Below, one piece after another: positions 1 to 3,000 of a stretch of 64,000 nt of DNA. A program made the position numbers. The stretch is taken from assembly GCF_054482525.1 (NCBI RefSeq), contig NZ_CM137006.1. One strand, written 5' to 3'. The first letter of the stretch is position 1, and each line of letters begins with the position of its first letter.

Positions 1-3000
1 TTTGCCTTTGGGCTTGGGCTTGGCTTCTGGCTACAATCTGGTAAGAATGCCGATGAAATTTCGGCTATTAAATCAGTTCATGCTGAACAGGTGAGGGCGG
101 TAACACCTGACAGTACCAGCGATTTACCGAGACTTTCTATTGATTCTTTCTCTCAGCTTGGTTTTGATGTTTCTGTTACGTTTGTTGACGCTAAGGGTAT
201 GAAGTACCAGTATTTTGATTTAATTAAAGATGGTTATTCCGTTGATATTAAAGATGCCTGCCGAATTGTTATCAGAAAAGGCCATTATTTACAAAGCGTC
301 ACCTGTCAGGAGTAATATTACTATGCGTTTATTTTGCATTGCCATCTTATTCATTTATTCTTTTTGTGTTTCTGCTGAAACTGTTAATCTTAATAATTCA
401 TCCGTTCGTTCATTTGTCCAGTGGTATTCATCAAAAACTGGTAAGCCTGTTATTGTTAACCCCGATGTTAAAGGCTCCGTAACAGTATTTAATGCTGATG
501 TTAATCCCACAAATATTGATGACTTTTTCAAATCTGTTCTGAATGCTAATGGATTTGTCATGCTTTCTGGTAATCCTGCGGTAGTATCTTTGCCGTCAAA
601 ATTACCGTCACAGATGGCATCAGACCCTGATGATTCCGATAATCAGTCTTATGACTCTTTTCCGCCAGAGCCATCCTGTCAGCCAGCGCCTGTGGCGCTC
701 ACTGTCAGAAATTTTAAGCTGACAAAAGTACGAGCGTCTGATGTTCAGCAACTGGTTAAAATTTATCTGGATTCGAATGGCGGGGGTAATGTCGTGGATT
801 ATCCCGGCAATAACTCCCTGATTGTATCTGCGCCTGACGAGCTACTGCCTGTTCTGTCCAATTTCATTAACTCAGTTGATGTTGCCCGTGATCAGGTACT
901 CATTCAATCGCTCATGTTTGAAACCAGTTTGTCTGATGGTGTTGATTTGTCATTTGCAGCTGGCTCTGCATCCGGCCATAAGGTGGCGGGGGGTTTTAAT
1001 ACTTCTGCGCTGGGTAATGCTCTTTCTACGGTGGGCGGCTCTTTTGGTATTTTTGATGGTAACGTGTTGGCGCTGTCTCTGCGTGCTGTCCAGAGTAATT
1101 CACGCTCTAAGGTGATTTCAACACCGCGCATTCTTACTCAGTCCGGTCAGACTGGTTATATTTCCGTAGGTAAGAATGTGCCGTTTATCACAGGAAAGGT
1201 AACGGGTGAATCTGCTGGGGTAAATAATCCGTTTCAGACTATCGAACGTCATGATGTTGGCGTTTCTCTCAAGGTAACGCCTGTTGTCATGGGGAACGGG
1301 CAATTAGTTTTGACCATCGATACCCGCGCCGATTCAATCAGCAATGATGACCAAGCATCTGATATTATTACTAATCAGCGCCAGATTCAGACCACTGTTC
1401 AGATTAAGGATGGCCAGACTCTCTTACTTGGTGGGTTGATTGATTCATCATCCAGCAATGCTGACCGTTCTGTACCATTTATCAGCAAAATTCCGGTAAT
1501 TGGCTGGCTTTTCAGGAGTAAAGCTGACAGTAATGAGCAACGCATTATGTATGTCCTGCTGACTGCTCATATTATTCGTGCGCTTTGATGGGGCCGTGGC
1601 GGGTGCGTTAAGCCCCGGTATGGCCCCATCAAGAGCCAGATTTTACGTCTCACCACGGAGCCTCTATATGGCCTTAAAACTGACAGGATATGAACAGAAA
1701 AACATCTTCTAGGTGATTCAATTACTTAGAGGTTTTTATGTCTGTAAAAAGTAGGGGCGCGATCGACTTCCTGGTGGTCGCCTGAAGTCTTACCGTCGTG
1801 TTGGTTCACATTTTACCAGTTGTTCCAAGTGGTTTGATAAATCACCGTCCTGGTATCGCAATATGATGATGACCCGGCCAGAGCGCCGTGAAGTCAGAAA
1901 GCTTCTCAATCAGGTTGTACGTGGCCGTGACGCTGACGGCATCGCATTTCCGGTCAGCAACAAGCCATTTGCATGGCGGTGGTGAACATTTTTAGCCGCT
2001 AAAACTTCATGCTGACGGAATTATCGAAAACCCCGTACAGCAACAAAACTTGTTTTTGTTGCTGTACGGGGTTGGCCAAGCCGCAACAGTACTCTATTTT
2101 TCTTTGGAGTTAATTGCGGCGCGGCTAGGGATGTATCAGACTTTAATCTTAACTACTTTTTCAGTGCCGGTCATAAAACTAACCAGCTTCTTGCGGCCAT
2201 CGGGATACTCTTTAATGACACATCCTTCTGGCGTATTTTTTTCAGCGTAATAAATAGGGACGCCACTAAGAAGACAGGCTCGGGCTGCTTCACCGACATC
2301 ATGTTCTAGTTGCTGCTCGAAAACAGTCAAGAACTCTGCTTCCTCTGATGGTGTCATTTCAGCTAAATATGATAAGTCCATAAATGCTCATGCCTTCTGT
2401 AATTCATTGCTTAGTAACAATGATGAACAGGCCTGATTGGTGAGGTCAGGCTGTTCACTTACTGCTGACAGACATTTGATTCTGATTCGTTTGGAGAAAC
2501 GGATGATTTTGAATCATTGTCGATAGTAACCAGTTGACGGCCAGTGTCAACGATCCCCGCCAGATTCTGCCATCCTTACCATTGGTGCGCATAATGTATA
2601 TTATGTTAAATGGAATTTGAGTGATGCGAAGCGATTTTCCAGTCGTCGTTATTACTTCAGGGTTCCAGAACATAAAGCCTCTCCTCTTTCATGATTGGCC
2701 TGTGCATACCGGATATAGGCTGGCAGGTTTGCCGTTTGCCGCATCTTCCCTGCGTTGAAGAGTCAGGCTGGCAAACTGCGTGCAAATGAACACCCCCTCT
2801 TTCTATCAACACTTCAGACAGCTTGCGGGAATGAGTTCACTCCGGTATCAGAAATGGCTACGCCTCAATGAAGCCAGGCGACTGATGCTGAATGAACATT
2901 ACGATGTCACCACTGCAGCCTATGCTGTCGGTTACGAAAGCTTATCCCATTTCAGTCGGGAATATTCGCGGATATTTGGAGAGTCACCTAAGAGAGATAT

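Follow-up and report, generated by a model that had tools for sequence, protein, structure and literature searches.

The DNA analysed here is a stretch of 64,000 nucleotides (nt) of contig NZ_CM137006.1 (assembly GCF_054482525.1), called the window in the following. Its positions 1-2597 are very probably the right end of an Inoviridae prophage of about 8.7 kb, of the I2-2/IKe-like 'UPphi' type, that was integrated at the chromosomal dif site by XerC and XerD, the recombinases of the host, via the single-strand route of CTXphi. The original prediction had described a pI-like tail, a pIV secretin (323..1588) and an exact dif site (2584..2611) lying about 1 kb apart, and had taken them for a prophage that exploits XerCD to occupy the terminus. 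All three features were found at these coordinates with 995 nt between the pIV stop codon and dif, and the prophage at dif was supported by complete relatives, by a second dif-like site and by the empty dif of Escherichia coli PCN033. Xer-based integration of filamentous phages at dif and the phage family itself are already published, and the element in the window is a further example.

The window begins inside gene I and therefore holds only the right end of the element, as predicted. Positions 1-315 (plus strand, frame 1) comprise 104 open codons followed by TAA and represent the 3' end of gene I, which encodes the Zot-domain assembly ATPase pI and starts left of the window. The encoded tail matched PHROG 1675 'morphogenesis (protein I of M13)' with an E value of 8e-18 and phrog_25505 with 8.5e-35, and it aligned to the C-terminal part of a Zot-domain protein of 364 amino acids (aa) in the closest complete genome (L001). 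An apparent 1-nt gap against L001 at window position 3 was considered as a frameshift of gene I. The gap is ambiguous, as a G replaced by T at the edge of the window would explain it equally, and it gives no evidence for a frameshift. Gene IV is adjacent on the same strand (323..1588, plus) and encodes pIV, the outer-membrane secretin for virion export. The 421-aa protein has a signal peptide and its open reading frame (ORF) is preceded by AGGAG. Over the full length its best family was PHROG 1012 'assembly (protein IV of M13)' with an E value of 5.5e-152, and it shares 74% of its residues with the gene IV product of I2-2, so that the proposed kinship with the Inoviridae secretins held. At the DNA level, positions 124-1615 showed 69-71% identity to phages IKe and I2-2 and to the PEar phages of Erwinia. 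The order of gene I and gene IV, adjacent on one strand, is that of the Inoviridae. The two genes are confirmed as filamentous-phage morphogenesis genes.

An imperfect hairpin at 1585..1632 (plus strand) overlaps the stop codon of gene IV. Folded as DNA it reached -27 kcal/mol (z -4.5), and its position equals that of the annotated 'morphogenetic signal' of I2-2. When four phages were compared, the loop GGTGCGTTA-GCCC was conserved and compensatory changes were observed in 10 of the 19 stem pairs. The hairpin is, by its fold and covariation, most likely the packaging signal, and it may be a terminator in addition.

The dif 28-mer GGTGCGCATAATGTATATTATGTTAAAT occurs once in the window, at 2584-2611 on the plus strand and without mismatch, whereas 100 shuffles gave no match even when three mismatches were allowed. 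This intact dif is the attR of the element, with the XerC arm at 2584-2594, the centre at 2595-2600 and the XerD arm at 2601-2611. To the right of dif an AraC-type fragment, an intact chaperone-usher fimbrial operon, ydeP and safA-ydeO follow, which is the terminus region of E. coli. Positions 2582-64000 are collinear with E. coli PCN033, with 100% identity over 2582-3405 and 2612-12000 and 99.98% over 15406-64000 (about 10 nt differences in 48.6 kb). PCN033 has the same exact dif, but its left side is free of phage and carries a remnant of an ISNCY transposase and a truncated hipA instead. Since the phage block is absent left of dif in PCN033, it is an insertion with its right boundary inside dif.

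The part of the element that lies left of the window was studied in relatives, which were identified by DNA similarity on the one hand and by looking up the exact pIV protein sequence on the other. The comparison set for E. coli consisted of 5,426 complete genomes. None of them had both the phage and the chromosome of the window; the 2.6-kb phage version was present over at least 80% of its length in five, and some relative of it in 165. The avian pathogenic E. coli (APEC) strain E19057 is 99.5% identical over window positions 1-2611. From hipA to dif it carries regulators on the reverse strand, gII (Phage_CRI), gV, gVII, gVIII, gIII, gVI, gI, gIV and two small ORFs. The exact pIV protein was found in six public E. 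coli contigs (L015-L020). Each of them has hipA, the left junction, a complete inovirus, the exact dif and the same chromosomal genes, and in all of them dif lies 8,743 bp from the left junction. L017 contains two complete tandem copies. Window positions 1-2597 are 99.96% identical to the first of these copies, without gaps, and diverge thereafter, and positions 1-2611 are 99.92% identical to L018, again without gaps. The phage part of the window is 1-2 nt away from the elements of its complete relatives, and those of L017 and L018 are the best proxies for the part that is not seen.

The full set gII-gV-gVII-gVIII-gIII-gVI-gI-gIV is present in the six contigs and in L001, whereas the window starts in gI. 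The original prediction had expected further filamentous-phage genes and a second dif-like site to the left, and had named a locus for type II secretion or for a type IV pilus as the finding that would speak against a prophage. In the nearest relatives (the six contigs and E19057) the leftward sequence consists of regulators and the phage genes gII to gI with no secretion or pilus locus, and a second dif-like site bounds the element beside hipA. No integrase gene was found in window positions 1-2583 or among the genes of these complete relatives. From the relatives we infer that the window's own element is complete. About 6.16 kb of additional phage sequence would then extend leftward and begin with GGTGCGCATAATGTGCTACACGTTATGTTGAAA... 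8,743 bp upstream of dif, or at a multiple of this distance in a tandem array, beside hipA or its remnant. A junction reading ...CCATCCTTACCATTGGTGCGCATAATGTGCTACACG would mark a tandem array or a replicative form.

A defective remnant, truncated to the left or otherwise immobile, would equally begin inside gene I at the window edge with the remainder unseen. The frameshift in the 82-aa ORF that follows gene IV (described below) points in the same direction, as does the irreversibility of CTX-type integration, in which single copies yield no virions (PMC4246890). We consider such a remnant unlikely. The gene I tail and gene IV are intact reading frames, and the same frameshift occurs in relatives with complete elements, the tandem pair included. 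The 1-2 nt differences in the phage part, together with about 10 nt per 48.6 kb from the empty-site strain, suggest a recent acquisition.

The left junction of L015-L020 reads GGTGCGCATAA TGTGCTACACG TTATGTTGAAA AGGCCGCTGCG AAAATAGAACCC CGCAGCGGCCT CTTTAGCATAA CGTCA TTGTGCGAACC. Where the two copies of L017 meet, the right end of the phage (...CCATCCTTACCATT) is likewise followed by this sequence, and this tandem junction is the phage's own attP. Its first dif-like site has a perfect XerC arm GGTGCGCATAA, an 11-nt centre TGTGCTACACG and a XerD-like arm TTATGTTGAAA. A GC-rich stem-loop separates it from the second dif-like site, which is inverted and reads GGTTCGCACAA TGACG TTATGCTAAAG with a 5-nt centre. 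Because the phage genes lie on the plus strand, the plus strand of attP is the packaged one. As single-stranded DNA (ssDNA) it was predicted to fold into one long forked hairpin of -34 kcal/mol, compared with -12.6 ± 2.4 for shuffles (z -9.1). A variant centre, TGTACGACTCG, was found in E19057, UM146, UTI89 and two Salmonella prophages, where the z value of the fold was -7.8. The same forked architecture, built with unrelated distal stems, was observed in dif inoviruses of Xenorhabdus and Morganella (z -9.1 and -5.1). As judged from these folds, the architecture of attP is conserved and its sequence is not.

The attP centre TGTGCTACACG shares with the dif centre TGTATA only the TGT on the XerC side; in the variant of CUS-1 and E19057, TGTA is common. 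For the window's variant, attP and dif are identical over the XerC arm and TGT, which are the 14 nt at 2584-2597. Past 2597 the window follows dif, whereas the tandem junction of L017 follows the phage centre. The empty site of E. coli 042 matches the left junction of E19057 up to GGTGCGCATAATGTA and the right junction of the window from GGTGCGCATAA onward. The alignments place the crossover between phage and chromosome within 2584-2597. This pattern is as predicted for a top-strand exchange catalysed by XerC, in which the left junction combines the chromosomal XerC arm with the phage centre and the right junction combines the phage XerC arm with the chromosomal centre and XerD arm, with dif regenerated. 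In two Salmonella loci (L012 and L013; 1585 / 10630) the left XerC arm is GATGCGCATAA or GGTGCGCATAA, and that of the regenerated dif is GGTTCGCATAA. In L013 two different prophages lie in tandem, with GGTGCGCATAA at the junction between them and GGTTCGCATAA at the rightmost site. The Salmonella arms fit a right-hand XerC arm that is donated by the phage to its left.

A dif-like site on the left and dif on the right are also found in prophages of the VGJ type, and the same phage might integrate as double-stranded DNA via a conventional dif-like attP, like the VGJphi- or TLCphi-type IMEXs (mobile elements that make use of Xer for their integration), and excise by reversal. However, as duplex DNA the two attP sites have spacers of 11 bp and 5 bp and not the 6-7 bp of functional dif and VGJ sites, so that a VGJ-type duplex attP was not found. 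Moreover, the two sites are inverted and complementary, they fold with z values of -8 to -9, and the forked architecture was kept in three lineages in which the sequence was not. A duplex route is therefore quite improbable.

For the favoured single-strand integration by XerC the following course is proposed. On the packaged plus strand, the XerC arm of the phage (GGTGCGCATAA), with which the phage part ends before the junction in the window, would be followed by the 11-nt centre, the XerD-like arm, the short stem-loop and the inverted second dif-like site with its 5-nt centre. This strand would fold into a forked hairpin that mimics the dif duplex. XerC would then swap one pair of strands between the hairpin and dif, and the TGT on the XerC side would stabilise the exchange. 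XerD would be unable to finish the reaction, the rest of the centre being non-homologous, and replication would resolve the pseudo-Holliday junction. On the hipA side the product would be a dead hybrid site with the unfolded hairpin (attL, outside the window), and on the right side a perfect dif (2584-2611). Since a perfect dif is regenerated on the right, the host would keep its dimer resolution and more copies could integrate in tandem.

The identities of the genes, the exact dif, the precise insertion point and the lack of an integrase were observed, and the hairpin and the tandem junction were observed in relatives. For the window's phage, catalysis by XerC, an ssDNA substrate and resolution by replication are suggested by the analogy to CTXphi. 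Several points weigh against this interpretation. The left end, the hairpin and the other phage genes were seen in relatives alone and not in the window. At least one gene is degraded, since the 82-aa ORF is frameshifted. Finally, a prophage of the CTX type that is present in single copy cannot excise or yield virions, its integration being irreversible (PMC4246890), and the copy in the window may be single or part of a tandem.

The reading of the secretin and the Zot-like ORF as parts of a chromosomal locus for type II secretion or type IV pili that happens to lie near dif has practically no probability and is already refuted. The secretin domain does match GspD and PilQ models and RefSeq labels related proteins 'GspD' in some genomes, but all scores against the NCBIfam models for GspD, PilQ, MshL and SctC were far under the curated cut-offs (GspD 243.7 bits, cut-off 351; PilQ 150.5 bits, cut-off 284), the best family is M13 pIV with 74% identity to I2-2 pIV, the neighbouring genes in relatives are those of inoviruses and the whole block is missing from the otherwise identical chromosome of PCN033.

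CTXphi of Vibrio cholerae integrates its plus-strand ssDNA via a hairpin of attP1 and attP2; XerC performs the sole strand exchange, replication finishes the process and the integration is irreversible (PMC3089051, PMC4246890). Its attP1 consists of AGTGCGTATTA-12 nt-TTATGTTGAGG and its attP2 of AATGCGTATTA-7 nt-TTATGTTACGG (PMC3089051). The element studied here shares with CTXphi the insertion at dif with dif regenerated, the lack of an integrase, the dif homology restricted to the XerC side of the centre and, as seen in relatives, the forked hairpin with two inverted dif-like sites, one of which has a longer centre than the other (12 nt as against 7 nt in CTXphi, 11 nt as against 5 nt here). 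Tandem arrays and accessory genes at attR, the spot of ctxAB in CTXphi, are also common to both. It differs in its host, in having no sequence similarity and no toxin, and in the 34-nt stem-loop that separates the sites, which are about 90 nt apart in CTXphi; the mechanism here would be the same by analogy.

CUS-1phi and Ypfphi (the latter, also CUS-2, is a Yersinia pestis phage) are counted among the CTX-type IMEXs, with attP sites said to have features for integrating ssDNA directly (PMC4246890, PMC3089051, PMC4266046), and their inverted pair of XerC/XerD sites was proposed as a CTX-like ssDNA substrate (PMC4266046, PMC3089051). With Ypfphi, an intact dif is restored at the 3' end of the prophage, copies occur in tandem arrays and two ORFs of unknown function lie beside attR (PMC4266046). 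Assistance by endonuclease III (EndoIII) is expected (PMC3442271). The original prediction had likened the element to the E. coli CUS-1 type. This was right for the attP module and for gII and gV, but the morphogenesis genes are I2-2/IKe-like and of the 'UPphi' kind, not those of CUS-1 proper. Like CUS-1phi and Ypfphi, the element is integrated at dif and has an intact dif at its 3' end. The prophage of UTI89 appears to be CUS-1, as judged from the serotype (the host of CUS-1phi is E. coli O18:K1:H7) and the gene content. The window's element shares with it the 82-aa ORF after the secretin gene, gII and gV, and the 94-nt attP hairpin of UTI89 is identical to that of UPphi-type prophages (UM146). 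In contrast, the morphogenesis module of UTI89 has a DUF2523 pVI, another Zot protein and another secretin. An assignment of the UM146-type prophage to CUS-1 was rejected on the basis of PMC7307601: UM146, E19057 and the window are of the I2-2-like UPphi type and UTI89 is of the CUS-1 type.

The UPphi viruses (UPphi901; Shapiro & Putonti 2020) were described from more than 200 Enterobacterales genomes (PMC7307601). Their morphogenesis genes are about 70% identical to those of I2-2 and IKe, and their gII and gV are common with Ypfphi and CUS-1 (PMC7307601). Integration takes place at dif, often in tandem, about the first 15 nt of it being repeated at the other end, and the viruses have two novel ORFs between gene IV and dif, where I2-2 is intergenic, and reverse-strand ORFs at the other end (PMC7307601). 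A text search of PMC7307601 turned up no hairpin attP. The gene content of the window's element fits the UPphi viruses. From the common UPphi type, for which UM146 stands, the element is set apart by a nucleotide identity of only about 87% over gI-gIV, and the two ORFs between gene IV and dif of UM146 show no similarity to those of the window, which suggests that the element lacks the two accessory genes specific to UPphi. The element has gI, gIV (its pIV is 74% identical to that of I2-2 at the aa level) and the packaging-signal hairpin where gene IV ends in common with I2-2 and IKe (Lineavirus); unlike it, these are free, non-integrating phages without attP and without accessory ORFs after gene IV.

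The findings leave the current understanding unchanged. They add a near-isogenic empty site, PCN033, and a relative whose tandem junction reveals the true attP. The CTX-type hairpin attP of CUS-1 and Ypfphi is also that of the I2-2/IKe-like 'UPphi' prophages, and the modules for morphogenesis, replication, attP and accessory functions reassort among the dif-integrated inoviruses of Enterobacterales.

Tandem arrays were found in L017 and in EC5502. The latter (L014) has a long array of UPphi-type prophages at dif with 16 matching places, in which many genes are marked as frameshifted; the array may be real, or noisy long reads of replicative forms may have been assembled into it. In UM146 (L002 5890-5960) an N-rich sequence lies left of the left junction, with a pattern like the hipA flank laid over the right end of the phage (..CCATT), which suggests that the assembly holds a collapsed tandem prophage. 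E. coli O114:H49 strain 90-9280 (L005 1-5800) has three tandem units of regulator, gII and truncated gV before a complete prophage of the CUS-1 type, an arrangement similar to the RS1 arrays of CTXphi. In the same strain two 'site-specific integrase' genes and an island lie directly right of dif (L005 12102-14544), and this island is not in the window.

The first of the accessory ORFs between gene IV and dif is the remnant of a conserved basic ORF of 82 aa (1738..1985, plus strand). It is broken relative to L001, as the G-run at 1754-1757 has four Gs instead of five and a stop follows after 15 codons. The gap-free alignments showed the four-G state in L017 and L018 as well. Because the nearest complete relatives have the same state, the frameshift is a property of the phage variant and not a sequencing accident in the window. 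By its position the ORF is probably a homologue of YPO2280a. Homologues with 67-96% identity were found in Salmonella, Pantoea, Brenneria, Xenorhabdus and Morganella. In the dif-integrated inoviruses of these genera and of E. coli the ORF sits after the secretin gene, and its hosts span three unrelated replication proteins, Phage_CRI, Rep_trans and Phage_GPA. No Pfam or NCBIfam match was obtained and no fold was assigned; the AlphaFold2 (AF2) model was unusable with a pLDDT of 48. Marginal matches to JetB (17 bits) and phrog_12343 (E 4e-4) were treated as noise. The conservation across genera, regardless of the replication protein, would agree with a factor tied to the Xer/dif lifestyle that modulates, for example, XerCD, EndoIII or the replication of tandem arrays, like XafT of TLCphi. 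However, in the window's variant the ORF is frameshifted, and phages of the UM146 type lack it and still integrate; we regard such a role as very doubtful. Under it, the second ORF described below, with its own promoter near dif, would be a lineage-specific replacement or partner.

This second ORF encodes 81 aa and is transcribed away from dif (2136..2381, minus strand). It matched PHROG 21003, a family of unknown function, with an E value of 4e-55 and has homologues in Brenneria and Erwinia. NCBIfam and PADLOC gave no match, nor did tblastn against phage records, and Pfam gave only a chance hit of 0.07. Its AF2 model reached a pLDDT of 74, with no fold match in the PDB better than an E value of 0.2. 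The 82-aa remnant and the 81-aa ORF are convergent and are separated by a perfect 20-bp inverted repeat with a 5-nt loop (2029..2073), found in a repeat search, which resembles a bidirectional terminator. Upstream of the 81-aa ORF and 33 nt from dif, the consensus scan indicated a putative sigma-70-like promoter, TTGACA-16-TACTAT (2523..2550, minus strand), as a pattern match with 10 of 12 positions. A 72-aa ORF at 2455-2673 (minus strand) is annotated as a gene in one assembly (L015 12133-12351). It spans the junction of phage, dif and chromosome and is almost certainly spurious.

A block of about 28-45 nt, ATGAGCCACAAATAGACATTAGCATTGAGCCTCTAyAAT, was observed directly left of dif or attL in three genera. 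It lies at 823-870 in PCN033 (L007), at 1540-1584 in Salmonella (L012) and at 1806-1833 in Xenorhabdus (L009). In PCN033 it adjoins the ISNCY transposase pseudogene that truncates hipA. The block could be the end of an insertion sequence or of another element that targets dif.

On the chromosomal side of dif, positions 2780..3034 (plus strand) hold the fragment of an AraC-type helix-turn-helix (HTH) regulator, a yneL-like pseudogene, as indicated by the annotation of L001, L003 and L007 and by PHROG HTH hits. The fimbrial operon at 3468-11000 is intact and consists of a major subunit, a chaperone, an 883-aa usher and three more subunits. The same operon is truncated in several relatives, for example UTI89, L016, L019 and L020. 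An Rfam SECIS_3 match of 84 bits at 55034-55092 (minus strand) lies inside fdnG, the gene for the alpha subunit of formate dehydrogenase-N according to the collinear PCN033 annotation, and is an ordinary feature. Between ddpF and osmC, at about 39570-46340, the collinearity with PCN033 indicates a cluster of seven genes for CoA transferase subunits A and B, an acetyl-CoA acetyltransferase, a 3-hydroxyacyl-CoA and a 3-hydroxybutyrate dehydrogenase, a GntP permease and a LysR regulator. The cluster resembles an accessory island for the utilisation of short-chain acids or ketones.

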